DNA of 19,227 nt from a virus (lineage: Duplodnaviria; Heunggongvirae; Uroviricota; Caudoviricetes), in the IMG/VR virus record IMGVR_UViG_2778261379_000001; one strand, written 5' to 3'. Position 1 is the stretch's first letter. The number at the start of each line of letters is the position of its first letter. A program made the position numbers and the translations under genes. Shown here piece after piece: positions 6,107 to 19,205 of the stretch. The notes beneath the pieces were generated by a model. It was not told where the DNA came from, ran no database searches, and worked only from the letters and a program-made list of their open reading frames with translations.

Positions 6107-7858
6107 ATGATTCAGGACGCTTTTGTGCGCCAGCGTGCGCGGCAACTTTACTGGCAGGGTTATCCGCCCGCAGAAATATCACGTCTGATGGGAATAAACC
6201 CGAACACGATTTATGCGTGGAAAAAACGTGACCAGTGGGATGAAACGCCACCCGTGCAGCGTGTCACGCAGTCCATCGATGCGCGCCTCATCCAGCTTAC
6301 TGAAAAACAGAATAAAACAGGCGGTGACTTTAAGGAAATAGACCTGCTGACCCGGCAGCTTAAAAAGCTGCATGATGGCCAGCCGGATGTGATGGCCGCA
6401 GGAAAGAAAGGCCGGGCGAAAAAACTCAAAAATCATTTCACGCCGGAACAGATTGCCGCACTGCGGGAAAAAATCATCAGCAGGCTGGAGTGGCATCAGC
6501 GGGGCTGGTTTGACTCCCTGACCCTTTGCAGGGAAGCCGGGATACGTAACAGGATGATCCTGAAATCCCGACAGATTGGGGCGACCTGGTATTTTGCACA
6601 GGAAGCACTGCTGATGGCGCTGCGTGACGATGTGGCGCAACCTTACCAGCGTAACCAGATTTTTTTGTCTGCGTCGCGTCGTCAGGCGTTCCAGTTTAAA
6701 AGCATTATTCAGAAGGCCGCGGCTGAAGTTGATGTGGAGCTGAAAGGGGGCGATAAAATCATCCTCTCCAACGGCGCAGAGCTGCATTTTCTCGGCACTT
6801 CTGCTGCGTCGGCACAGTCCTATACGGGCAATTTTTATTTTGATGAATTTTTCTGGGTCAGTCGCTTTGCTGAACTGCGCAAGGTGGCTGGCGCTATGGC
6901 AACCCTCAGCGGACTGCGGCGCACCTACTTCTCCACGCCATCCACCGAAACGCACGAGGCATACGCCTACTGGAACGGCGACCGCTGGAACGAGAAAAAG
7001 GCCTCGCATAAACGCCAGCGTTTTTCTGTGGACTGGAAAACGCTGCATAATGGGCTTATCTGCCCTGACCGGACGTGGCGGCAAATTGTCACGCTGGAAG
7101 ATGTGGTTAATCACGGCTGGAAACACACCGATATCGACGAAATTCGTGATGAAAACACCGAAGACGAGTTCCTCAATCTCTATATGTGTGAGTTTGTCCG
7201 CGAAGGGGAATCGGCATTTAACCTGAATATCCTGATTGGCTGCGGTGTTGACGGATACGACGACTGGAAAGACTGGAAACCTTTTGCTCCCCGCCCGATG
7301 GGGAATCGTCCGGTATGGATTGGGTATGACGCAAACGGCAGTAGTGGCAACGGCGACAGCGGCGCTGTGTCCGTGGTGGTTCCTCCGGCTGTTCCTGGCG
7401 GCCGTTTTCGAACGGTGGAGACGCGACGCGTTCAGGGGCTGGAGTTTGAAGAACAGGCCAGAGTCATTGAAGAGTTCACGTGTCGCTACAACGTGGAACA
7501 CATCGGCATTGATGTGACGGGCGGGAACGGGGAGGCTGTTTATCAGATAGTGAAGCGGTTTTTCCCTGCTGCTATTCCGTACACCTTCACGCTGTCATCA
7601 AAACGGTCGCTGGTACTGAAAATGCTGCAAATAATGCGTGCCGGGCGGTGGGAATACGATCGCGCCGAACGCGAGCTGGTCGCGGCCTTTAACGCCGTGC
7701 GTAAGGTGAAAACACCGGGCGGCTTTATCACTTACGAAACGGACCGCGCGAGGGGGATCAGCCACGGCGACCTTGCGTGGGCAACCATGCTTGCTGTCAT
7801 TAACGAACCAATTGGCGGCGAAGGAGAAAACGAGCGTTTCATGGTTATGGAGTTCTGA
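6107..7858 (+). CDS. P: terminase ATPase (large) subunit, gpP-like
   Basis: 583 aa. N-terminus LYWQGYPPAEISRLMGINPNTIYAWKKRDQWDE matches remembered P2 gpP. Stop overlaps the Q start (TGATG). Confidence 0.9.
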   Translation: MIQDAFVRQRARQLYWQGYPPAEISRLMGINPNTIYAWKKRDQWDETPPVQRVTQSIDARLIQLTEKQNKTGGDFKEIDLLTRQLKKLHDGQPDVMAAGKKGRAKKLKNHFTPEQIAALREKIISRLEWHQRGWFDSLTLCREAGIRNRMILKSRQIGATWYFAQEALLMALRDDVAQPYQRNQIFLSASRRQAFQFKSIIQKAAAEVDVELKGGDKIILSNGAELHFLGTSAASAQSYTGNFYFDEFFWVSRFAELRKVAGAMATLSGLRRTYFSTPSTETHEAYAYWNGDRWNEKKASHKRQRFSVDWKTLHNGLICPDRTWRQIVTLEDVVNHGWKHTDIDEIRDENTEDEFLNLYMCEFVREGESAFNLNILIGCGVDGYDDWKDWKPFAPRPMGNRPVWIGYDANGSSGNGDSGAVSVVVPPAVPGGRFRTVETRRVQGLEFEEQARVIEEFTCRYNVEHIGIDVTGGNGEAVYQIVKRFFPAAIPYTFTLSSKRSLVLKMLQIMRAGRWEYDRAERELVAAFNAVRKVKTPGGFITYETDRARGISHGDLAWATMLAVINEPIGGEGENERFMVMEF

Positions 7859-8904
7859 TGAGCAGAAAAAATAAAAAAGTGCGCATGAGTTCACGCATTG
7901 ATCTCGCTGATGCGCTCAGGAAAGAATCATCGCTCAGTGCATTCACATTTGATGGTCCTTATCGCCTGACCGGGCATGACCTGCTGGACAATATGTACTG
8001 TGCTGATAACGGGCGGTGGTATGAAACCCCGGTGGACTGGTACGGTCTGGCAAGAGCAGCCCGGCAAACGTCCTGGCATCAGTCTGCGCTTTACTTTAAG
8101 CGCAATGTATTACTCGGTTGCTACATCCCGCACCCGCTGCTTTCCCGGCAGGATTTCTCGGCGCTGGCGCTGGACTGGTTTGTGTTCGGTAACGCATTCC
8201 TTGAGCTTCGAAGCAATATGCTCGGCGAACCGCTTAAATTACGGCACGCCCTGGCGAAATACATGCGACGCGGAAGCGATCTTGAATCATGGTGGTATGT
8301 GCAGGATGGCAAGGACGCGTTTCAGTTTCGTCCTGGCAAAGTGTGCCACCTGATGAATCCGGATATTAACCAGGAAATCTACGGCATGCCGGAATATCTT
8401 GGCGCATTACTCTCGGCCAGCCTTTCTCATTCGGCGGACATGTTCAGAAAACTGTACTACGACAACGGATCCCACGCCGGGTGCATCATCTACATCGGTG
8501 CAGCGCAGGTAAACCGCGAAAGCATGGACTCCCTGAAAGAAACGCTACAGGGGGCACGTGGTGGTGGTGCGTTTAAAAACGTGCTCATTCATGCGCCCAA
8601 CGGGGGCAAAGAGGGGGTGCAAATTTTGCCGTTCCAGCAGATCACCGCAAAAGATGAATTCATGAATGTTAAGGCGGCATCCCGTGATGATGTGCTGGCT
8701 GCGCACCGCGTTCCGCCGCAACTGATGGGGGCGATGCCGGGCGAAAAAAGTGCGTTTGGCGATGTGGAGAAGGCAGCGCGGGTTTACGCAATTAACGAGC
8801 TGATGCCCGTTATGGAGGCTATGAAGCACATCAATGACTGGCTTGGCGAAGAGGTGATCCGTTTTAACTCTTATGCTCTTCTTGATGAAAAAACAGCCCC
8901 GTGA
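7858..8904 (+). CDS. Q: portal (capsid vertex) protein, gpQ-like
   Basis: 348 aa with blocks NGRWYE, FVFGNAFLE, DINQEIYGMPEYL, HRVPPQLMG, WLGEEVIRF matching remembered P2 gpQ. Confidence 0.9.
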   Translation: MSRKNKKVRMSSRIDLADALRKESSLSAFTFDGPYRLTGHDLLDNMYCADNGRWYETPVDWYGLARAARQTSWHQSALYFKRNVLLGCYIPHPLLSRQDFSALALDWFVFGNAFLELRSNMLGEPLKLRHALAKYMRRGSDLESWWYVQDGKDAFQFRPGKVCHLMNPDINQEIYGMPEYLGALLSASLSHSADMFRKLYYDNGSHAGCIIYIGAAQVNRESMDSLKETLQGARGGGAFKNVLIHAPNGGKEGVQILPFQQITAKDEFMNVKAASRDDVLAAHRVPPQLMGAMPGEKSAFGDVEKAARVYAINELMPVMEAMKHINDWLGEEVIRFNSYALLDEKTAP

Positions 8905-8920
8905 TGGGGCTGTCCTTTTT
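8888..8920. terminator. bidirectional intrinsic terminator between convergent Q and the 174-aa gene
   Basis: Stem ACAGCCCC (8893..8900) pairs with GGGGCTGT (8906..8913) around a 5-nt loop. A T-run follows on the plus strand (8916..8920) and on the minus strand (complement of the A-run 8888..8892). The hairpin overlaps the Q stop codon. Confidence 0.5.
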
Positions 8921-9443
8921 ACCAGAGTTGAACCATTTTCTGGGTGCCGTCAGGCTTGAGATTATCAATTTCAGAGAGAACGTAATATTGAATGGCTTCA
9001 CAAACGGTGGTGTAGGGTGAATTACCTTCTTTAAGTGGCACGATATTATTATTAACGCGAACCTGTATTTCATCGTTATACATTGCGATCGAAACAGGAG
9101 TGTGCACGAACGCGACTTCGCCAGGTGTGTCGTCAACCACCGTTTCAATACTAAAAGTCAGTTTTCGCTCATCATTGCTGCCCCGTGCTTTGGGGGTAGC
9201 GGCAGGGATCTGGGATAAAGGCATTCTGCGAAATCCTTCGGCTGCTTCCAGTCCGCATGAAACGTAATGCTGGCGATTACCGTCGCTATCTGTCCAGGTC
9301 TGTGATGGCAGCTCCAGCGAGATTTCATAAGCATCAACAATGCCCTGGGCAAGGCGTACAAGCGGGGTCAGATCTTCATTGCGGCGAAAGCTCTCCTTTA
9401 CCTGCTCCCGTTTTTCTCTTAACTGCTTGTAATTAATGACCAT
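8919..9443 (-). CDS. hypothetical protein, 174 aa (orphan accessory gene convergent with Q)
   Basis: Start taken at ATG 9443 with SD GGAGG 7 nt upstream (MVINYKQLREKREQVKESF...). The track start 9482 is a GTG. No motif I recognise. Ends in the shared terminator hairpin. Confidence 0.55.
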   Translation of the reverse strand: MVINYKQLREKREQVKESFRRNEDLTPLVRLAQGIVDAYEISLELPSQTWTDSDGNRQHYVSCGLEAAEGFRRMPLSQIPAATPKARGSNDERKLTFSIETVVDDTPGEVAFVHTPVSIAMYNDEIQVRVNNNIVPLKEGNSPYTTVCEAIQYYVLSEIDNLKPDGTQKMVQLW

Positions 9444-9542
9444 AAGACAGCCTCCATTGATTTCTTTGCTCGTATTTTGCACTTATGAAGTATGGTCGGC
9501 AAGGTGCCGTATCGCTGACGCGCTTCGCTTGTCTGCTGCTTC

Positions 9543-9571
9543 GCCGGGGCATAAAAAATTTATGCCCCGGC
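9543..9571. repeat. perfect 13-bp-stem palindrome GCCGGGGCATAAA/TTTATGCCCCGGC with 3-nt loop
   Basis: Read directly from the sequence. No T-tract on either side, so not a classical intrinsic terminator. Lies about 100 bp upstream of the 174-aa gene start. Confidence 0.5.
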
Positions 9572-9848
9572 TCTCCAGCTCCTGTATCAATCAGATAATT
9601 TCACGACGCCTTCCAGTTTATCGCCACCATCGACGGTCAGACTCTTACGCAATTCCACCGCGTTGACTGCATGTTCTCGCTGCCTCAGTGCGATTTTGAC
9701 GGCCTTACCTTTCACCCCATCAAATCAAAAGCCCTCACGCCTTTTTCATGCTCAGCGTGAGAAATATGGCCATTCTGTTGTGTCTCTGCGACATCGTTCA
9801 GGGAATGCTATTTACCCCCTGAAACGCGGGCTGTTCCCCCGTCACCTG

Positions 9849-9872
9849 CGCGCAGAAAAAGCGCGTTTTTTT
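9849..9872 (+). terminator. candidate plus-strand intrinsic terminator
   Basis: CGCGC-AGAAAAA-GCGCG followed by TTTTTTT. No convincing coding ORF lies upstream on the plus strand. Confidence 0.35.
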
Positions 9873-9942
9873 GTGCACGCACGGATCCTTGACGGATCCA
9901 GCCGCCATGCGGGCCGGAAGGGTAAAAAGTCGTTCAAAAAAA

Positions 9943-9969
9943 TTGTGCAAATTTGTGCACTTTTGTGCA
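9943..9969 (+). repeat. three direct TTGTGCA heptamers at exact 10-bp phasing (9943, 9953, 9963)
   Basis: Sequence reads TTGTGCAaatTTGTGCActtTTGTGCA. The last copy ends about 20 bp upstream of the candidate -35. Confidence 0.45.
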
Positions 9970-9988
9970 GGTAAGCATGCCTATATAT

Positions 9989-10017
9989 TTGACCGTGGCT
10001 TGCCTTTGATGTAGTTT
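9989..10017 (+). promoter_or_regulatory. candidate sigma70-type promoter for the AT-rich cassette
   Basis: TTGACC (9989..9994), 17-bp spacer, TAGTTT (10012..10017). Weak -10, pattern match only. Confidence 0.25.
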
Positions 10018-10069
10018 ATACGTCACAAAAACCACAAAACGTGGTTATGATTTCTATGAGGGGGTTGAT

Positions 10070-10105
10070 ATGAAAAAAATGTATGATGAATTTGATGGTT
10101 TCTAA
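10070..10105 (+). CDS. candidate 11-codon leader peptide (MKKMYDEFDGF)
   Basis: ATG preceded by GAGGGGG SD with about 6-nt spacer, stop TAA at 10103..10105, followed 20 nt later by an intrinsic terminator and then the first cassette gene. Confidence 0.25.
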   Translation: MKKMYDEFDGF

Positions 10106-10125
10106 GCTACGTTGACCTCTAATGA

Positions 10126-10152
10126 GGCGGGGATTTGCTCCCCGCCTTTTTT
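10126..10152 (+). terminator. intrinsic terminator / candidate attenuator just upstream of the cassette
   Basis: GGCGGGGA-TTTGC-TCCCCGCC followed by TTTTTT. The stop of the hairpin is 14 nt before the 10167 start codon. Confidence 0.45.
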
Positions 10153-10166
10153 ATGGATGAAATAGG

Positions 10167-10664
10167 ATGAACCCAATAACACTACAAATCATCAGCAATG
10201 CTATTGTTCTGCTTGGCGTTTTGGTTGCCATTGGAACCATTATCTACAATGTGCGTACCGCAAAAAAAACTCAAACGGCCAACTTTCTTTTTGAGAGTCG
10301 GCAAGATATGCAATATATAGAGTCATTGCATACCCTGAAACAAGTGCATCGTTCAGGCAAATCATTTCGTTCTTATGTTTTTCCTTGTGATGGTTGCATA
10401 ATAACAGATGAAGAAATGGCCGAGCGTCGAAAATTTCAATATATTTTAAATTTTTACGAGCGAGTTGCTGTAAGTATTCGTGAAGGTATTTATGATGAAA
10501 AAATGATAAAAAGAACATCTTACACAACAGTTGTAGAGACATATGATATTGCCGAGCCATTAATTAAAGCAATCAGAGAAAGCATTAATTCGGATACTAC
10601 ATATCAAGAATTCGAATGGTTAGTAAGAAGATGGAAAGCTAATCCTTTACGGAAAAACAAATAA
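10167..10664 (+). CDS. hypothetical membrane-anchored protein, 165 aa (one N-terminal TM helix plus soluble domain); first gene of AT-rich cassette
   Basis: ATG start. N-terminus ITLQIISNAIVLLGVLVAIGTIIY is a clear TM helix followed by a charged, mixed soluble region. Codon usage is strongly AT-biased relative to neighbours. No motif I recognise. Confidence 0.65.
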   Translation: MNPITLQIISNAIVLLGVLVAIGTIIYNVRTAKKTQTANFLFESRQDMQYIESLHTLKQVHRSGKSFRSYVFPCDGCIITDEEMAERRKFQYILNFYERVAVSIREGIYDEKMIKRTSYTTVVETYDIAEPLIKAIRESINSDTTYQEFEWLVRRWKANPLRKNK

Positions 10665-10703
10665 TGTTTTACCCTTTAATTTACAAGTAACACAGGGGGA
10701 AGT

Positions 10704-11546
10704 GTGACACAGAATCCGTTTTCATTTTATGACTTTTTGGGCTATCTAATTCCAGGTGGGTTATTCCTGTTTATCCTTTTTTTGTTTTCTATTGAAATTA
10801 ACCCTGTTTATATAGAAGGTATTCTTAACCATATCCTGAAATATAAAGAAATAATAAGTGTATTTATATATGTGGTATTAATCGTTCTATCATATATTTC
10901 AGGTCACTTCATATCTATTCTATCATCCTGTTTAATTGAAAAATACATGAACAGTAAACTTGGGTATCCTTCAATTTATCTGTTTTCTAAAAGAAGCTCC
11001 CTGAAAATAAAACGACATAATACTAAGTTCAGTATAGTTAATTTTATTCGTGGAGTTTTTTTATTTCCTGTATCAGCTTTTGATAAAGCAGAACATCATA
11101 AAACCACACTGCATTCTATACTTATTAAAGTCTTTTGGCCGCAAATACGAGATGGTTATATAAATGTTTTTTCTGTATCTACGCTATATCGACGTAAGGG
11201 CTTGAGGGGCGATCTTTTTCGCCTTGCTTATCATTATGTGTATGAACATTCTAAAAATCATCAGGTGAAAATGCAAAACTATGTTGCTTTGTATGGTTTT
11301 TGTAGAAACATTACATTTGTTTTTCTCGCTTCAGTCTGGTTGCTTATGTTCCTGCTCCTTCTATCCTTTTTAATAGATATAAATATCAGACTGTTACCTT
11401 TTTGTTTTCTTCTCTTGTTTTGTATTGCTGCATCCCGAGTATTTTATTATGGTTTTGTTAAGTATTATCGCCGCTATTCTCTTGAGGTTTTAATGGCATT
11501 TGCGGTACTTCAGCACGATAAAAAAACTTCGGCAATTTCATCATGA
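10704..11546 (+). CDS. hypothetical polytopic membrane protein, 280 aa (about four TM helices: two N-terminal, two C-terminal, with a central cytosolic region)
   Basis: GTG start with GGGGGA SD just upstream. Hydrophobic segments at about residues 12-29, 52-75, 197-220 and 225-245. AT-rich like the upstream gene, 39-bp gap, same strand. Confidence 0.65.
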   Translation: MTQNPFSFYDFLGYLIPGGLFLFILFLFSIEINPVYIEGILNHILKYKEIISVFIYVVLIVLSYISGHFISILSSCLIEKYMNSKLGYPSIYLFSKRSSLKIKRHNTKFSIVNFIRGVFLFPVSAFDKAEHHKTTLHSILIKVFWPQIRDGYINVFSVSTLYRRKGLRGDLFRLAYHYVYEHSKNHQVKMQNYVALYGFCRNITFVFLASVWLLMFLLLLSFLIDINIRLLPFCFLLLFCIAASRVFYYGFVKYYRRYSLEVLMAFAVLQHDKKTSAISS

Positions 11547-11557
11547 TTTGAAACATT

Positions 11558-11580
11558 GGCACCCTGTTAGCAAGGGTGCC
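11558..11580. other. hairpin GGCACCCT-GTTAGCA-AGGGTGCC between the convergent cassette and parR
   Basis: Read directly from the sequence. No adjacent T-tract on either strand. Confidence 0.3.
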
Positions 11581-11629
11581 AGAATGATGTGTTGGTCTGT
11601 ATTTTATTAGTTCACATACAATTATCAGA

Positions 11630-11944
11630 TTATTCTGGGAATAAGGTCTGAATATTCTTTTTTATTTTATAAAAATTGCATTCAACTCCGCTAGGCTGAT
11701 TATCCTGGTATGTTTCCTTGATGCTAACGGTATTGAAGGGGAGGTTGTCCTCTGGCCATTCGGCCATCCAGTAGGCAAATGCTGGGTTGCGCTTTATGAG
11801 CGCTAGCCCAGCCAGAAAGGCCGCGCGTTGCGCGCGGCTGCGTTCGGAGGCTGGCAGGCTATCGAGGTAATTGCACGCCTCCTGTTCACTCTTGACGGCG
11901 GCGGGCTTCAGATAGAAACTTATCCGTCTGGTTGGTGTCGTCAT
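11630..11944 (-). CDS. parR: ParR-like partition adaptor (ribbon-helix-helix centromere-binding protein)
   Basis: Internal ATG at 11944 with SD AAGGAG 7 nt upstream, 4 nt after the parM stop. N-terminal region RRISFYLKP...LDSLPASERSRAQRAAFLAGLALIKRNP aligns with remembered R1 ParR (RRTIAFKLNP...LDSIPQGERSRLNRAALTAGLALYRQDP). Confidence 0.6.
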   Translation of the reverse strand: MTTPTRRISFYLKPAAVKSEQEACNYLDSLPASERSRAQRAAFLAGLALIKRNPAFAYWMAEWPEDNLPFNTVSIKETYQDNQPSGVECNFYKIKKNIQTLFPE

Positions 11945-11948
11945 TGGT

Positions 11949-12908
11949 TTACTCCTTGTCCATTGCGTACAGCCCATTAACCAGAGCAAACTGTGGCACC
12001 CCGTCCGCGATGAAAGTCGCATTAACTCCGCAGACTTCGCGGATAGCGGGTGCCACAATCTCCGCCCCTCCACCGACAACCATCACCCGCCCGTAACCCG
12101 AAAAAACCGCCAGCGCGCGGATCACGCGTTGTTTCAGTGTTTCTTCCTTTTCACGAATAACCGCCATCAGGCTGGCGTAATGCGCGTCATTGTGGATGTG
12201 CTGGCGCAGCCAGGCTTCATCATGGCGATGTTCGATAATGGTATTGGCGATGTGGTGACTGGTGCGCATACCGTTAGTGGCCATCACCGACAGTACGGCA
12301 TCGGCCATCAGGGAAACGCCTACGTGTGGATCGCAAAACACCTGGCTGATACCTGCCAGTTGCCCTTGAACCTTTGCCACATCCAGCGTGGTTCCGCCTA
12401 AATCCACAATCAGCAGGGATTCAAACGGACTCATGTCAGCCAGTGCTTTAAAGCCAGCCGGAATGGATTCAGGCATAACCCGCACGTTACGGATAGTGAA
12501 TGCTTCGCCGTTCTGGTATTCCACCGGGCGCATAACGTTCGCTTTTTTGCGGTTGATGTTGGCCATGTCCGGCTGTGCGTTTGTGTCGAAATACTCGCTC
12601 AGTGGCAGGGTGACAACCACATCCACCTCCTGTGGCGTGATGCCTGATTTGACCAGCGCGTGATGAATGGCGATTACATTCACATCGCTGTACTGGTATT
12701 GCGTGTCGGTCGTCTGGACAAAGCGATCGCTAACCGGATCAAAACCATAGCGCACGCCATCAAGCATGTAGTTCGCGGGCTGCATGCCACCGAACGGCGC
12801 AGACCATTCCGACTTGAAGCTGTTCGGGCTGATGGCGTTGCGGCGTTCGCCATTCTCAGTCCATGCCAGCTTGATGTTGGTGGAGCCGTCGTCGATACAA
12901 ATTTTCAT
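11949..12908 (-). CDS. parM: ParM/StbA-family actin-like segregation ATPase
   Basis: 319 aa. N-terminus MKICIDDGSTNIKLAW...ISPNSFKSEW...YQYSDVNVIAIHHALVKSG closely matches remembered R1 ParM (MLVFIDDGSTNIKLQW...ISPNSFKREW...WQYSDVNVVAVHHALLTSG). Good SD AAGGA. Confidence 0.85.
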   Translation of the reverse strand: MKICIDDGSTNIKLAWTENGERRNAISPNSFKSEWSAPFGGMQPANYMLDGVRYGFDPVSDRFVQTTDTQYQYSDVNVIAIHHALVKSGITPQEVDVVVTLPLSEYFDTNAQPDMANINRKKANVMRPVEYQNGEAFTIRNVRVMPESIPAGFKALADMSPFESLLIVDLGGTTLDVAKVQGQLAGISQVFCDPHVGVSLMADAVLSVMATNGMRTSHHIANTIIEHRHDEAWLRQHIHNDAHYASLMAVIREKEETLKQRVIRALAVFSGYGRVMVVGGGAEIVAPAIREVCGVNATFIADGVPQFALVNGLYAMDKE

Positions 12909-12939: not shown

Positions 12940-13051
12940 TTTACGGGATTCTGAAATCCCGTTTTTGCCTGTTTTGTGCGCGCTTCATATATCGCTGCGC
13001 GTTTTTTGCTCATTTACGGGATTCGTAAGTCCCGTTTCTGTCTGTTTTTTG
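12940..13051. repeat. two about 39-bp direct repeats (12940..12978 and 13013..13051, 33/39 identical), each containing an ACGGGA(TT)/(AA)TCCCGT inverted repeat; candidate parC centromere/operator
   Basis: Repeat 1 lies in the A-parM intergenic region 32-70 bp upstream of parM. Repeat 2 lies within the last codons of gene A. The two copies are 73 bp apart. Confidence 0.45.
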
Positions 13052-15807
13052 TTTCCACTGGTCAGGCCACCCCGCAGCAGGTCTGCTTTGCGGCTGGCGC
13101 GTTCAGTGGTTTCACTGATTCTCTGTGCGTGCTCTGCGTCGCGGATGGCGCGCAGCATGTCAGAAAGCACGGTAACGGGTGTTTTCATGGTGTTCTGGCC
13201 CTGCTGAAGTGTGGATGCCAGGCGTGCGGCGGCTTCAGGGTCTGATGCCCCCAGCTGTGCCAGATAGCTGGCGACCGGGTTATGGCGGATCTCCGTGCTG
13301 CTTACGCCATGATTACGGCTCAGGCGCTGCCAGAGCTGCGTGATTCGGCTGTCCGGGCGGGTATCCGGTTTGCGTACAATTTCAAATCCCTGCGGTGCAA
13401 TGATGCTGCCGTCAACGTACAGACTGCCGCCCCGTAACAGGTGCTGCATCTGTTGTTCACCGATATGCAGGCCGAGAGATTCAGCAGACTCCCGCCATTC
13501 TTTAGCGAGTAATTCGTGGTTATCAGGCAAAGGCCGCTGCTGTTTGCGGCTCTGTGTCCAGCTCTGCATTTCATCGCTGCTGTTTTTTGCCTGTTTGTCA
13601 CGAAGCGAACGCATCAGCGCCCGGCGTTCGTGTCGTTTCAGTGAGCGCATCCATTCGTTCACTTCAACGCCGTCAGGGAGCTGCGGCCACGGTGCTGGCC
13701 GTTCTTCCGGCTGTTCTGTCCCGTTGTTGTCCGTTTCCTGTACACGGGGACAGTTATTGCCACGAGTCCAAGGGGCGGCAGGGCCGCCCTGAAGGTCAAA
13801 ACCATTTTCGCGGGCGCTGTCTTCCGCTTCCGGTTTACGTCTTACCAGCTTCCAGTTATCCGGATGCGTGCACACACGGGAGGATTCCCCGATGAGTGGT
13901 GACCAGATCCCGTAAATCTGTACGCTCTGTTCGCCGTAATCGTTCAGCTCATCTGCGAGGTCGTAGGCGGTGCGAATCAGGTAGTCCTTGCGTGGAACAA
14001 GCACGCCACCCTGTTTTTCAATGTAGGTGGCAAAACACCCGGCATCGGCGGCAGCGAGTACCGCATCCATTGCATCATCTTTCAGCCGTTGCGGGCCTTC
14101 CGGATTGCGTGCCATCTGGCTGGCAAGGCGGCGCAGTTCACGCCACACCTGACGGGAGGGGATGCCAAAGAACTGGAACTGACGGACCCGGTGAAGGCGC
14201 GCCCAGCCGATGGCGCGCTCCACGCTCTCGGCCATTGATTTTCCGGTTTCGTGGTCCACGCGTGGCTTGCCCGTTTTCGGGTCGATGCCATCCACGGCGC
14301 GGCTGTCCAGGTTCTTTCCGATGTAGGTGGCGATGTAGCTGGTTGGCGTGCCTTTTGAGCCGTCGACATACTCCACCTTAAAGCGCGGAGTAATATCATT
14401 GCCCAGCTCGTGGCGGTCTTCCTGAATGGCAATATCGCGGGTATGGGACACAATGGTGTCGATTTCTTCCGGATGTGCAAAGACCATCATATGCCAGTGC
14501 ACGGTGCCGTCATGATGAGGCTCCACCGTGCGGATGCCATACCAGCGCAGGCCGTCGCGGTTCAGTTTTTTGCGGACCGCCGCAAAAAACGTGTTAACCA
14601 GGTAATCGCTGGAGTCGCGCATTGTGGCCCCGTTCCATTTGGGATTCGGATGACCGTTCTCCGTTGTGGCGTGGTATTTTGACGGGCAGGTGACAGTCAG
14701 AAACACCGCTTTGTCGCCACGGGCTTCGGCCAGAAGTTCCAGTCCCTTCATGGTGGCCATCATTTCTGCCTTACGGTGAACCGGGTTACTTACTCCCGCG
14801 TAATACACTGTCTCGAGATCAATCGTGAACCCGTCTTCATTTTCCAGCATGAAACTTTTCAGGAAATCGCGTGTTTTCTCGCGCTGTGCGCGAAACTCGC
14901 TTAACGCGTCCTGGCTCAGATAGGGTGATGTTTTTCTGGAAACCAGACAGGCGGCGCGGAGTTGTTCTTCTCTCCACTCGCAACGTAACAGCCACAGTTT
15001 GCGTTTCCACCATTCCGCACAGGTCAGGCGAAGGATTGCGCCCGGCAGCAGCTCCGTGTCCGGTTCGTTCCTCCGGTCTTTGTCTGTTGTCAGTGCGTCA
15101 TAATGTGGAGGCATGGCGTGCAGGTGTAACGCCATGCGGGCCAGCATCTGATACGCCTTCAGGGTTACATCCATGGTCAGCTCGCCATCGGTCGCGCCAA
15201 AGCCATCGCAGAGTTTTTCGAAGGTGCTGCTGAACATCGCCGCCGTCATGGTGGCCAGCGTCTGTATCTGGTGTTTGTTGAGCTGCGGCAGGTAAAGCAA
15301 ATCGTCCAGGCGTTCGCGTCCGGCAAGGGAGCGATAACCCGGTGTCAGCCAGCGTCCGTCAGTGCTATCCAGACGTTCGAATATTTTGCGCAGGGTTCCG
15401 CGTGCATAGCGTTCCGCCTGCCAGCTCTTTTTGCCTTTCCGGCGATCGGCTTCCTGTTTTTTGCGCAGGAAGGAGAGGTGGCGAATAAGCGGATCGCGCA
15501 GATAGGACGGCAGCAGGCGCAGCGAGGCCATGGCTTCATCCACCGCGCCACGTGCCTGTTTTCTGGCGTCTCCTGCCAGTGTGATGGTTTTGTCCTGTTT
15601 TTCCTGTGCGTCCAGGCTTTTATTAATCAGGTTGCCCAGCGGCGTGGCTGAGAACGCCGCATCAGCCATTTCCTGGCGGCGCTCGTTCTCTGCCCGGTAG
15701 GCATCCAGCCAGGAGGAAAGCGCGGATTCAGGAGCGGGGATCCCCGTTCCTTCACGCCCCACTGCGTGGCGCGGTTGTTGCCAGTCCCTGAGGTACTCTG
15801 CCGTCAT
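12985..15807 (-). CDS. A: replication initiation endonuclease (gpA-like, HUH rolling-circle nickase)
   Basis: 940 aa containing HUH motif DGTVHWHMMVFAHPEE and the tyrosine pair SYIATYIGKN. Position after the early genes is as in P2. Longer than P2 gpA as I remember it (761 aa), with the extra length C-terminal. Confidence 0.85.
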   Translation of the reverse strand: MTAEYLRDWQQPRHAVGREGTGIPAPESALSSWLDAYRAENERRQEMADAAFSATPLGNLINKSLDAQEKQDKTITLAGDARKQARGAVDEAMASLRLLPSYLRDPLIRHLSFLRKKQEADRRKGKKSWQAERYARGTLRKIFERLDSTDGRWLTPGYRSLAGRERLDDLLYLPQLNKHQIQTLATMTAAMFSSTFEKLCDGFGATDGELTMDVTLKAYQMLARMALHLHAMPPHYDALTTDKDRRNEPDTELLPGAILRLTCAEWWKRKLWLLRCEWREEQLRAACLVSRKTSPYLSQDALSEFRAQREKTRDFLKSFMLENEDGFTIDLETVYYAGVSNPVHRKAEMMATMKGLELLAEARGDKAVFLTVTCPSKYHATTENGHPNPKWNGATMRDSSDYLVNTFFAAVRKKLNRDGLRWYGIRTVEPHHDGTVHWHMMVFAHPEEIDTIVSHTRDIAIQEDRHELGNDITPRFKVEYVDGSKGTPTSYIATYIGKNLDSRAVDGIDPKTGKPRVDHETGKSMAESVERAIGWARLHRVRQFQFFGIPSRQVWRELRRLASQMARNPEGPQRLKDDAMDAVLAAADAGCFATYIEKQGGVLVPRKDYLIRTAYDLADELNDYGEQSVQIYGIWSPLIGESSRVCTHPDNWKLVRRKPEAEDSARENGFDLQGGPAAPWTRGNNCPRVQETDNNGTEQPEERPAPWPQLPDGVEVNEWMRSLKRHERRALMRSLRDKQAKNSSDEMQSWTQSRKQQRPLPDNHELLAKEWRESAESLGLHIGEQQMQHLLRGGSLYVDGSIIAPQGFEIVRKPDTRPDSRITQLWQRLSRNHGVSSTEIRHNPVASYLAQLGASDPEAAARLASTLQQGQNTMKTPVTVLSDMLRAIRDAEHAQRISETTERASRKADLLRGGLTSGNKKQTETGLTNPVNEQKTRSDI

Positions 15808-17590: not shown

Positions 17591-18001
17591 CTATGCGTTA
17601 AATACGGTGCACTGTGCGTCATCAATGAATGCGACTTGAGAGCGCTCTATCAGGCGGAGATTTGTCAGAATTTCTGATTCCCTTATGGGGTGAGGAGTGA
17701 TCAGGTATTTATCCTGTAACCCGGCGATAATGGTGTATCGCTGTAGCTCCGAGCCAATTGTGTAAATAAGGCGTCCGGTGTTAGACAAATCCAGTCCGGT
17801 GACTGGTTGTGTTCTGAGAACCGCCAGTTCAGCATCCTGTTTTGCGATAATTTCGGCTGCTTCTGCCGTGACTCTTGCGACTATCAGTGTGTGGGTTGCG
17901 ACGTCCATATGATTATTTGCTATGGCTTTTTTCGCTACTTCGTTTTCTGTCTTTGAAATTTCTTTCAGTGCTCTGATGATACCTTCTTCTTTTGCGTGCA
18001 T
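17591..18001 (-). CDS. hypothetical early-operon protein, 136 aa
   Basis: ATG with SD GGAG 8 nt upstream. No motif I recognise. Confidence 0.55.
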   Translation of the reverse strand: MHAKEEGIIRALKEISKTENEVAKKAIANNHMDVATHTLIVARVTAEAAEIIAKQDAELAVLRTQPVTGLDLSNTGRLIYTIGSELQRYTIIAGLQDKYLITPHPIRESEILTNLRLIERSQVAFIDDAQCTVFNA

Positions 18002-18094
18002 TTTTGTATCTCCGTTATTTGCGTGTGCGAATACCTCCGTTAATACGGATGGTTTTCACGTTTTCTTATTTAATTTGATGTTTTATTTGTATCG

Positions 18095-18208
18095 TTATTC
18101 ACCAGTGAAAAAACGTTCAATCTTTTTTACTGAATGAATAATTCGCACAATGCCAATTGCGCAGACCACTGAAATAATCAGAACAATCCATGACATAAAT
18201 ATACTCAT
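18095..18208 (-). CDS. candidate small membrane peptide, 37 aa (MSIFMSWIVLIISVVCAIGIVRIIHSVKKIERFFTGE)
   Basis: Below the ORF-track size cutoff. ATG overlaps the stop of the upstream gene (ATGA), SD GGGGA 7 nt upstream, single hydrophobic helix. Confidence 0.4.
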   Translation of the reverse strand: MSIFMSWIVLIISVVCAIGIVRIIHSVKKIERFFTGE

Positions 18209-18447
18209 GCGATATTCCCCAGCTTATACGGTTCAATATGTTCCCCGCATTCTGCGGCACAGATCAGCTCGGAAAGTTCGTTAAGTGCATCCAGATCATC
18301 AGCGTAAAAAGCCACGTCATACAGACTCCGGATTGCCCTGGTCAATGAGTCACGGGCTGCACGTTCAGCATGAGCGCCTGATGCACTTAAGCGAAAATAA
18401 AAACGCTCAAGTGCTTTGTTAATGAGAGTTTTATATTCTTTGCCCAT
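18205..18447 (-). CDS. hypothetical early-operon protein, about 80 aa
   Basis: Start taken at internal ATG 18447 (MGKEYKTLINKALERFYF...) with SD AAGGG 7 nt upstream. The track start 18498 would overlap the upstream gene by about 40 nt. Confidence 0.5.
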   Translation of the reverse strand: MGKEYKTLINKALERFYFRLSASGAHAERAARDSLTRAIRSLYDVAFYADDLDALNELSELICAAECGEHIEPYKLGNIA

Positions 18448-18458
18448 CGCAACGCCCT

Positions 18459-18737
18459 TTAATCTGCTTTCTGAATTTCTGCTTCTGAATCCATACAAAT
18501 AATTTCGATATAGGGTTCATCGCCATTAGTCTTACGTGCTTTTTCCGCTTCGCTAATGATTTCGTGTACAGTCTGGTACGGAAGTTCTACGGTCAGGCGC
18601 GTGCCGTTCAGATAAACGTAAGTAGCTGCATTTTTTTCGGATGGAACAACTCCGTCAATGGCTGATGCGCGTAATAACAGTTCACCGCGAAAATCAATAA
18701 AACGGATAAATACACCTTGTGCATGCTCTTTGGTCAT
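18459..18737 (-). CDS. hypothetical early-operon protein, about 92 aa
   Basis: Start taken at internal ATG 18737 (MTKEHAQGVFIRF...), 11 nt after the upstream stop. The track start 18797 would overlap the upstream gene by 50 nt. Confidence 0.5.
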   Translation of the reverse strand: MTKEHAQGVFIRFIDFRGELLLRASAIDGVVPSEKNAATYVYLNGTRLTVELPYQTVHEIISEAEKARKTNGDEPYIEIICMDSEAEIQKAD

Positions 18738-18747
18738 AAAGCACCTG

Positions 18748-19098
18748 TTATAAATCAGCCTGTTTAATAAAACTTTGCCCGTGAAGCAGACGATCAACCG
18801 TGCGAAGTGCTTCGTATAATGTGAAATCCTGCCCGAACTGATTGTCGCCGTTGCTCAGTGCAAAAATGCGGTTTCCGGTAAATGGGTTGCGCTGGCATCT
18901 GTGAACCACGATTCCTGCTTTTTCAATCAGCCAAGTGTGTTCACCAATTTGTTTTACTGGGTAGCCATCCGGCGTTGCGTGTGTTTCGCTCAGGCTGTAG
19001 CGAGAGTTGCTACGTGATGCACTGGTAGCGAAACGGTTAGCATGGCGTTCCGCACCGTTGCGGAAGCGCTGCTGTGAAGAATTGCGCTGTAGTTTCAT
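18748..19098 (-). CDS. hypothetical first gene of the early operon, 116 aa (Cox/Apl position, not recognisably Cox-like)
   Basis: ATG at 19098 and a basic, arginine-rich N-terminal region. Its position next to the control region is the only basis for the positional analogy. Confidence 0.5.
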   Translation of the reverse strand: MKLQRNSSQQRFRNGAERHANRFATSASRSNSRYSLSETHATPDGYPVKQIGEHTWLIEKAGIVVHRCQRNPFTGNRIFALSNGDNQFGQDFTLYEALRTVDRLLHGQSFIKQADL

Positions 19099-19205
19099 AT
19101 TAAAACTCTGTACCTTCGGTAAGGTGTACTCGTGTCACCTTGTATTGATTTGTGGTATTTTTTTTGTGTGTCTGAAGTGGTTTACTGAATTTGGCCACCT
19201 GAACA

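Follow-up and report, generated by a model that had tools for sequence, protein, structure and literature searches.

Many prophages of the P2 family carry accessory genes between the replication gene gpA and the portal gene gpQ, a slot that has been described as the main defence hotspot of P2-like phages and in which related phages carry known defence genes (Rousset et al. 2022; Moura de Sousa et al. 2026). In P2 itself this slot is occupied by old and tin, which are established phage-exclusion genes (Rousset et al. 2022). In the P2-like phage AC1, the same hotspot encodes a TIR protein together with two small membrane proteins with two and one transmembrane (TM) helices, respectively, a system that has been validated as a defence against lambda and P2 (Rousset et al. 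2022). Here, the cargo of this hotspot has been analysed in the IMG/VR virus record IMGVR_UViG_2778261379_000001, a stretch of 19,227 nucleotides (nt) that will be referred to as the window. The cargo consists of two genes, named here gene A and gene B, which a previous sequence-only reading of the window had proposed as an undescribed defence or exclusion module. The arrangement was in fact already on record, as Table S5 of Rousset et al. (2022) lists it, more than 160 times, with the exact protein accessions. What the comparisons point to is not a dedicated pair, but two stacked single-gene modules that appear to move independently of each other, the first of which brings its own conserved leader and a predicted fold that resembles a plant immune domain.

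P88-like (Xuanwuvirus, Peduoviridae) prophages of Escherichia coli O25b:H4-ST131, such as those of EC958 and JJ1886, match the window with 100% identity. Terminase and gpQ (7858-8904) are followed by an open reading frame (ORF) of 187 codons on the minus strand, a conserved non-coding stretch, genes A and B, and then parR, parM and gpA (12985-15807) on the minus strand. This gene order (gpQ, cargo, ParR/ParM, gpA), together with the two papers cited above, agrees with the proposal that the cassette sits at the P2 old/tin position, a hotspot of anti-phage cargo. An alignment of five Xuanwuviruses places the left edge of the variable segment at ~9970, with an invariant backbone up to ~9969 and unrelated cargo beyond, while the right edge lies just past the ParR stop codon, at ~11625. 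Other genes are found at this site in related Xuanwuviruses, so that both location and variability are those of cargo of the P2-type gpA/gpQ hotspot. The segment 9970-11625 is best explained as the exchangeable cargo segment of this hotspot in a P88-like P2-family prophage of E. coli ST131.

The G+C (GC) content is 0.29-0.36 across positions 10200-11600 and 0.52-0.60 on both sides. Gene A has a GC of 0.349 and gene B of 0.317, with values at third codon positions (GC3) of 0.27 and 0.26, whereas the terminase, portal, ParR, ParM and gpA genes show a GC of 0.51-0.58 and a GC3 of 0.58-0.64. The composition analysis, which the sequence-only reading had named as a check on its claim that the cassette is far more AT-rich than its flanks, thus finds the region atypical. 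The gene coordinates of that reading (Table 1), with 39 nt between the two genes, are also recovered, and hydropathy agrees with its description of two co-oriented genes for a protein of 165 residues with one TM helix plus a soluble domain and another of 280 residues with about four TM helices.

The notion of a compact two-gene operon survives only in part. The common orientation and the short spacing stand, but the idea of a dedicated pair does not hold outside a narrow group of phages. None of the 29 species-level loci of the gene A family (DUF4760, see below) carries gene B within 6 kb, and 67 of the 76 viral loci of gene B lack gene A within 5 kb, the nine that have it being all P88-like phages of E. 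coli, the only phages in which both genes are linked. Citrobacter phage Shae_phiSM, which belongs to the same genus, has gene A (78% amino acid identity) without gene B at this hotspot, and so do P2-like prophages of Xenorhabdus and Pectobacterium. Gene A also stands alone between housekeeping genes, in other prophages, and in chromosomes. In turn, relatives of gene B at 35-47% identity are found alone in lambdoid prophages. Moreover, in one variant of the cassette (locus L020), gene A is 99% identical, with a synonymous divergence (dS) of 0.039, while gene B is only 87% identical, with a sevenfold higher dS of 0.276, and gene B has therefore been exchanged independently of A. According to these data, A and B are best read as two stacked, independently mobile single-gene modules, and their description as one two-gene system is probably wrong. 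Because only 39 nt and no terminator separate them, B is nonetheless probably co-transcribed with A. The cassette is also found in a decayed P88-like remnant in E. coli AST205 (L130; NZ_AP043614.1, 518232-526766), with truncated terminase and replication genes and with A, B, parR and parM intact, where the leader region of gene A has lost its first 74 nt to an inserted IS421.

The protein encoded by gene A is a member of the Pfam family DUF4760 (PF15956), which it matches with 119.3 bits (cut-off 25; E = 1.8e-34) over positions 2-141 of the 141 of the profile. It also belongs to PHROG 2284, a family of no assigned function, and has no match in NCBIfam. A weak PADLOC lead to PDC-S35 (E = 0.014) was discarded, as it was matched by only 2 of 18 relatives. 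Hydropathy reveals one N-terminal TM helix (approximately residues 5-28) followed by a soluble domain. This helix is followed by a basic flank (RTAKK), and the N-terminus carries no charge; therefore, following the positive-inside rule, the helical domain is predicted to be cytoplasmic, and the protein would be a single-pass inner-membrane protein with the N-terminus out and the C-terminus in. Gene A is under purifying selection, with a pairwise ratio of nonsynonymous to synonymous substitution rates (dN/dS) of 0.07, and ten residues are invariant in relatives down to 29% identity (A21, A32, L94, E98, E111, R137, E148, E150, W156, and P160).

An AlphaFold2 model of this protein was obtained with a mean predicted local distance difference test (pLDDT) score of 92.5 and a predicted TM-score (pTM) of 0.79. 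When it was used as a query in Foldseek, all the matches at a TM-score above 0.5 were chains of the EDS1 family, with probabilities up to 0.97 and weak E-values (0.4-3). The resemblance to the EP domain of this family (PF18117) was found by two methods, and on the predicted structure the two have the same fold. In plants, the EP domains of EDS1, PAD4 and SAG101 are the receptor for pRib-AMP/ADP and ADPr-ATP, signals made by TIR proteins, and the EP domain has been reported to be without structural relatives outside the EDS1 family. However, EP domains act as heterodimers, which build a pocket for nucleotide binding, and are joined to a lipase-like N-terminal domain, while the 165 residues of the gene A product hold only the TM anchor N-terminal to the helical domain. 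Furthermore, this product does not match the EDS1_EP profile (a Pfam scan up to an E-value of 1 lists only DUF4760 and one spurious match), and neither TIR nor any other signal-making gene adjoins any of the 29 DUF4760 loci examined, 20 of the neighbouring proteins being annotated by family search. The relationship suggested by the model is therefore a resemblance in fold, and not membership in the EP family. Other approaches added little: the comparison of the gene A profile with the sequences of the PDB yielded nothing meaningful, a search of BFVD returned one unnamed and uninformative viral protein, and the term DUF4760 was found in the main text of a single, unrelated paper.

A conserved leader, which the sequence-only reading had not mentioned, precedes gene A (Table 1). 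It comprises a strong Shine-Dalgarno (SD) sequence, an upstream ORF (uORF) of 11 codons, a small hairpin around the stop codon of the uORF, a conserved box, a strong intrinsic terminator, and a tiny ORF that runs into the start of gene A. The uORF lies upstream of DUF4760 genes in more than 20 loci from many genera, with the peptide motif DE(F/Y)D(G/W)F kept through synonymous codon changes. In the sequence DEFDGF, all six codons vary synonymously, and the amino acids are the same in 10 of 15 aligned leaders, so that selection holds the peptide itself. DUF4760 is accompanied by the whole leader in E. coli, Citrobacter, Xenorhabdus, Pectobacterium, Kluyvera, Klebsiella, Enterobacter, Atlantibacter, Franconibacter, and on the chromosome of Rahnella.

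In the hairpin around the stop codon, three of the five base pairs change on both sides (U-A in six leaders and C-G in six), some of them where the Asp and Gly codons can vary synonymously. Its covariation score was reached by none of 500 shuffles and was lower in slid controls, and in E. coli itself the hairpin is weak, with two G-U pairs in the stem. Downstream of it is the UUGACCUC box, in which ACCTC is invariant in the six leaders first aligned and present in most of the 15. The duplex between the SD region and UUGACCUC has an energy of -9 to -12 kcal/mol in 12 of the 15 leaders (z-scores of -1.1 to -2.8 against shuffles), which is suggestive of a candidate anti-SD element pairing with the SD region of the uORF. 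This helix was not recovered by RNAalifold, the SD region being one that aligns poorly, and no convincing antiterminator helix was found in the leader.

The terminator is conserved in all the leaders and shows a compensatory change from G-C to A-U in the Citrobacter phage Shae_phiSM. Since no promoter fits between the terminator and gene A, this gene must be expressed from transcripts that read through the terminator. The tiny ORF that follows has a consensus, TTTTTTATGGATGAA, conserved across leaders, and a stop codon that overlaps the start of the next gene is also seen in Kluyvera and Dryocola, which suggests that the translation of gene A is coupled to that of this ORF. The leader does not reach the gathering score of any Rfam family (the only two sub-threshold matches being SorX, with 19.3 bits against the 46.6 required, and caiA, with 26.2 against 55.5), and a literature search on the peptide motif found nothing relevant. 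The hairpin at 10124-10148 was also considered as a candidate for the cohesive end site (cos) because it contains GAGGCGGGGA, which we take to be part of P2 cos. This candidate was rejected on account of the compensatory change in the stem, of its travelling with DUF4760 into chromosomes, and of the lack of any match in the window, even with three mismatches, to the 19-mer taken as P2 cos.

The uORF is not confined to DUF4760. In a scan of viral contigs, codons for DEFDGF followed by a stop were found at 80 loci, 50 of which are short ORFs of 25 codons or fewer, and a DUF4760 gene starts 0-60 nt downstream in 29. A second recurrent class is found in P88-like phages, in the same hotspot and on the opposite strand after parR, where the uORF MKKKRMNDEFDGF is accompanied by a GC-rich hairpin that lacks a T-run and by an SD sequence, and leads into a protein of 174 residues with no Pfam match (among loci L135-L137, L140, L159, L173, L177, L183, L184, L208 and L210). 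Further copies lie before ordinary terminators in unrelated phage contigs (L163, L164, L202 and L209). As it is found before different cargo genes and other terminators, this micro-ORF is a reusable element of phage accessory cassettes rather than a part specific to DUF4760. Its product may act as a regulatory peptide while still nascent or as a free micro-peptide; its acidic tail, with Phe as the last residue, is reminiscent of the C-termini of SSB and of T7 gp2.5.

Gene B encodes a membrane protein with TM segments at approximately residues 12-30, 51-77, 203-223 and 229-250 according to hydropathy, with which the long helices of the AlphaFold2 secondary structure agree, giving four TM helices. 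The two TM pairs flank a basic central domain of ~120 residues, with 21 Lys/Arg and 6 Asp/Glu. All homologues can be aligned with it from residue 1 onwards, and pairwise dN/dS values of 0.26-0.28 indicate purifying selection. The protein belongs to phrog_12528 (E = 1.1e-71), a family of no assigned function, and has no match in Pfam or NCBIfam. A word-indexed search yielded 358 relatives, and a full HMMER search 1125 cluster representatives, 244 of them with E-values below 1e-30. Against the PADLOC profile of Csx27, residues 6-244 of the gene B product align with positions 4-179 of 206 (85% of the profile) with an E-value of 1.1e-5, and, among 76 diverse members of the gene B family, 54 match Csx27 (best E-value 2.2e-10) and 18 the related model tm_4, with no Pfam family matched consistently. 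A wider family of four-TM Csx27 relatives, with predicted single-stranded DNA channels, has reportedly been delineated by Makarova and colleagues in 2019. Profile similarity points to gene B as a member of this wider family, the match being remote.

Gene B is not Csx27 proper, as no cas13b lies nearby. Csx27 is an accessory protein encoded beside cas13b in type VI-B1 systems, while gene B, carried by other prophages as a solitary gene, is flanked here by DUF4760 and parR, with no cas13b or CRISPR array next to it and no cas gene among the 11 features annotated over 11.2 kb around the cassette in the record of an identical phage. It is also longer (280 residues against a profile of 206 positions), with the basic central domain as an extra part. 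The Csx27 family has been predicted to form membrane channels for single-stranded DNA in an article that deals with these proteins (PMC7642515). Three motifs are conserved in gene B: NPFSxYDFLGYLIPG at the N-terminus, KxQNYVALYGFxR before the third TM helix, and FxKFYRR after the fourth, all of them at the predicted cytoplasmic face. The comparison of its profile with PDB sequences yielded nothing meaningful. In 54 of the 67 viral loci that carry B in the absence of A, a cI-like repressor gene lies upstream on the same strand, some of these loci having the order cro/cI-B-xis-int. A relative of 288 residues, present on more than 1000 contigs, lies in a lambdoid prophage of E. coli beside zur, dinF and lexA (L002-L006), after homologues of YfdP, YfdQ (DUF2303) and YfdR. 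As yfdS presumably occupies that slot in the CPS-53 prophage of K-12, it is another exchangeable slot.

Judging from the position of the cassette, A and B may be inner-membrane proteins expressed by the lysogen, each of which by itself excludes other phages or aborts their infection, a reading to which we give about an even chance. Translation of the uORF would set the read-through into gene A, which would be held low until translation or the ion balance is disturbed. The product of gene A would then be anchored in the inner membrane with its EP-like helical domain in the cytoplasm, while that of gene B would work from the cytoplasmic side of the membrane and perhaps affect the passage of DNA, as predicted for the Csx27 family, and each of them might block DNA entry or permeabilise the membrane. 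A function in the lysogen would fit the intact cassette of the decayed prophage remnant. In agreement with the sequence-only reading, neither protein holds a recognisable catalytic domain (Pfam and NCBIfam). Homology to a non-defence function, such as that of a transporter, which would have refuted that reading, was not found in Pfam, PHROGs and PADLOC searches. Several data weigh against exclusion by two independent proteins. Neither A nor B matches a validated defence system in PADLOC 2023 (PADLOC-DB 2.0), in which B has matches only to Csx27 and tm_4, and the arrangement is absent, by name and by accessions, from the evaluated systems in Table S2 of Rousset et al.; from this absence and the listing in Table S5 it follows that it is catalogued but uncharacterised. 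Csx27 itself has been described in a preprint as repressing Cas13b interference, and not as defending (bioRxiv 10.1101/092577). In addition, the AlphaFold2 model of gene B, built on an alignment of 13 sequences, has a pLDDT of 54 and is unusable. In most lambdoid prophages, the gene B relatives occupy the far end of the early-left region, beside xis/int, a location that fits a role in the lytic cycle or in counter-defence equally well. Finally, the leader with A, B, and the whole cassette are each found in the same number of complete E. coli genomes (289, 289 and 289 of 5426), which would also be expected of a functional pair.

Some of these data would also be accommodated if the two proteins served the cycle of the phage itself or counter-defence, acting on DNA passage, on the timing of lysis, or as inhibitors of a host immune pathway. 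The lambda early-left region carries anti-defence genes such as ral and gam, Csx27 has been described as a repressor of Cas13b interference, and an attenuated leader would suit a gene that is toxic unless timed. Nevertheless, gene A is often found by itself in chromosomes, away from any phage, gene B directly follows cI in some prophages, and the cassette survives in a prophage unable to replicate, all of which makes this explanation rather unlikely. A single two-component defence system of the E. coli P88-like phages, in which A could, for instance, be the sensor, by way of its cytoplasmic EP-like domain, and B the effector in the membrane, accounts for the complete linkage in complete genomes, for the common strand, spacing and composition, and for the retention of the pair in the P88-like contigs of IMG/VR and in the degraded prophage. 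It sits badly with the finding of each gene alone far more often than together, with the swapping of B alleles (dS 0.276 versus 0.039), and with a leader that belongs to A alone and accompanies it into chromosomes, and we regard it as decidedly improbable. The fixation of the cassette in a large set of ST131-type genomes, the diverse housekeeping genes that adjoin DUF4760 in other genera, and the lack of a defence-family match for either protein would be expected of lysogenic-conversion cargo for host fitness unrelated to phages (envelope, stress, or colonisation in ST131). Yet related phages carry known defence genes in the same slot, both families are strongly associated with phages, each with a PHROG match, and gene B is related to a CRISPR accessory protein, so that such a role seems very improbable. 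As for non-functional AT-rich DNA that merely hitch-hikes, such DNA does yield long spurious ORFs, like an antisense one of 106 codons at 10240-10560, but the dN/dS values (0.07 for A and 0.27 for B), Pfam and PHROG E-values down to 1e-74, and the conservation of both genes across genera effectively refute this explanation, which keeps next to no probability.

In the most far-reaching reading, DUF4760 proteins would be membrane-tethered prokaryotic or phage counterparts of the EP domain that perceive a nucleotide-derived or other small-molecule signal of infection, the DEFDGF micro-ORF a new, portable ribosome-sensing attenuator, and gene B a phage-borne Csx27-type channel acting on DNA passage. 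This combination is a long shot. If true, the attenuator would switch on hotspot cargo when an incoming phage disturbs translation or the ion balance, and the locus would provide new single-gene defence families and a microbial relative of the EP domain.

Table 1. Features of the gpQ/gpA cargo segment (positions in the window)
Feature	Position	Strand	Evidence
Left edge of the variable segment, with promoter-like site GTCACA-18-TATGAT (10022-10051)	9970..10057	+	alignment; consensus scan
SD GAGGGGG (10058-10064) and 11-codon uORF MKKMYDEFDGF-stop (10070-10105)	10058..10105	+	conservation
Small hairpin, loop containing the final sense codon of the uORF and its stop	10096..10109	+	RNAalifold, pair counts
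UUGACCUC box, candidate anti-SD	10112..10119	+	conservation, duplex energy
Intrinsic terminator, 10-bp GC-rich stem and T-run, its end 15 nt upstream of the gene A start codon (ATG)	10124..10152	+	terminator scan
Tiny ORF MDEIG-stop, starting at the end of the T-run, stop codon overlapping the start of gene A (ATGA)	10153..10170	+	read from sequence
Gene A, DUF4760 protein of 165 residues, N-terminal TM helix and all-helical domain predicted cytoplasmic	10167..10664	+	Pfam, hydropathy, AlphaFold2
Gene B, 280 residues, four TM helices, GTG start, SD AGGGGG, Csx27-family relative	10704..11546	+	profile hidden Markov model matches, hydropathy
GC-rich hairpin GGCACCCT-loop-AGGGTGCC, lying between gene B and parR, whose 3' ends converge	11558..11580	.	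read from sequence

Two further elements bound the cassette. Upstream of the leader, the promoter-like site listed in Table 1 is a putative promoter, promoter-consensus matches being no more numerous in the region than in shuffles. Downstream, the hairpin after gene B probably marks the end of the transcript, close to the right edge of the variable segment. It lacks a T-run and is a putative terminator, and an analogous hairpin is found at the same place in Shae_phiSM. The antisense ORF of 106 codons already mentioned lies on the minus strand inside gene A and is most likely a by-product of AT-rich sequence, not a gene.

Several neighbouring regions of the window deserve a brief description. 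The 187-codon ORF between the portal gene and the conserved non-coding region (8919-9482, minus strand) has no Pfam match and a GC of 0.47. Some P88-like phages have it, whereas others that still carry A and B do not (L057 and L059), a relative with 45% identity lies beside gpA in a Trabulsiella prophage (L043), and it is listed as WP_000236495 in the table of Rousset et al.; it is another exchangeable cargo gene. The ~450 bp of non-coding DNA at 9519-9969, near-invariant in the five Xuanwuviruses and with hairpins such as GGGGCATAAAAAATTTATGCCCC near 9546, is probably the packaging (cos) region. On the other side of the cassette, a ParR-like protein (Plasmid_stab_B) and a ParM/StbA actin-like partner (11630-12908, minus strand) form a partition pair that adjoins gpA. 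Partition modules are carried by about a quarter of P2-like phages, for which a plasmid-like maintenance has been suggested (Rousset et al. 2022). A second, moderately AT-rich stretch (GC 0.39-0.46) is found at 17800-19100 on the minus strand, with small genes that match the Pfam families DUF4754 (18205-18498) and DUF4761 (18748-19098), and unannotated ORFs. The near-consecutive numbers of DUF4754, DUF4760 and DUF4761 suggest that these families were defined from the same kind of prophage.

The locus itself is what could be expected at the gpQ/gpA hotspot, and the unexpected features are the fold resemblance and the portable micro-ORF leader. A literature search on the protein accessions found nothing relevant, and, as far as the searches reach, four points are new: the EP-like fold, the link between gene B and the Csx27 family, the independence of A and B as modules, and the leader with its uORF. 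Both proteins belong to large families of no assigned function, DUF4760 and the Csx27-related one with more than 1100 cluster representatives. If the fold of gene A reflects real homology, the plant immune EP domain would gain with it a first relative beyond the EDS1 family. Together with its terminator, the DEFDGF micro-ORF makes up a conserved regulatory element that had not been described. As it recurs before different cargo in the same hotspot, it may be what keeps potentially toxic cargo silent in lysogens. The complete genomes that carry the cassette belong largely to the pandemic ST131 lineage, which includes EC958 and JJ1886, and a phage-exclusion activity, if any, would bear on phage therapy against it.

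Compared with known regulatory systems, the leader of gene A recalls the leader-peptide attenuators and arrest peptides pheL, tnaC and mgtL, with which it shares a short uORF for a conserved peptide under selection, an intrinsic terminator, and the regulated gene immediately after it. In contrast to them, it shows no clear antiterminator helix and corresponds to no Rfam family, its peptide has no match in the literature, and the uORF is also found ahead of a hairpin that lacks a T-run, in front of a different cargo gene.

Among the exclusion systems, old and tin of P2 share with A and B the slot between the replication and portal genes, a foreign composition, and an expression apart from the core operons. 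However, the two sets of genes have no sequence relationship. Old is an ATPase-TOPRIM nuclease, while A and B are membrane proteins without catalytic motifs, and the Pfam scan found no ATPase-TOPRIM domain in either of them. The system of phage AC1 also combines small membrane proteins in the same hotspot, but there the TIR enzyme is thought to make the activating signal, whereas A and B have no enzyme partner and no PADLOC match to that system. Functional analogues may be RexAB of lambda, SieA of P22 and gp15 of HK97, small inner-membrane exclusion proteins which, like A and B, are encoded in accessory slots of prophages. No homology between them and A or B was detectable in Pfam, PHROGs and PADLOC searches, and the analogy, which underlies the explanation preferred here, is one of position and topology only. 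It extends to the order of the genes, as some relatives of gene B lie directly downstream of cI, just as rexAB does in lambda.

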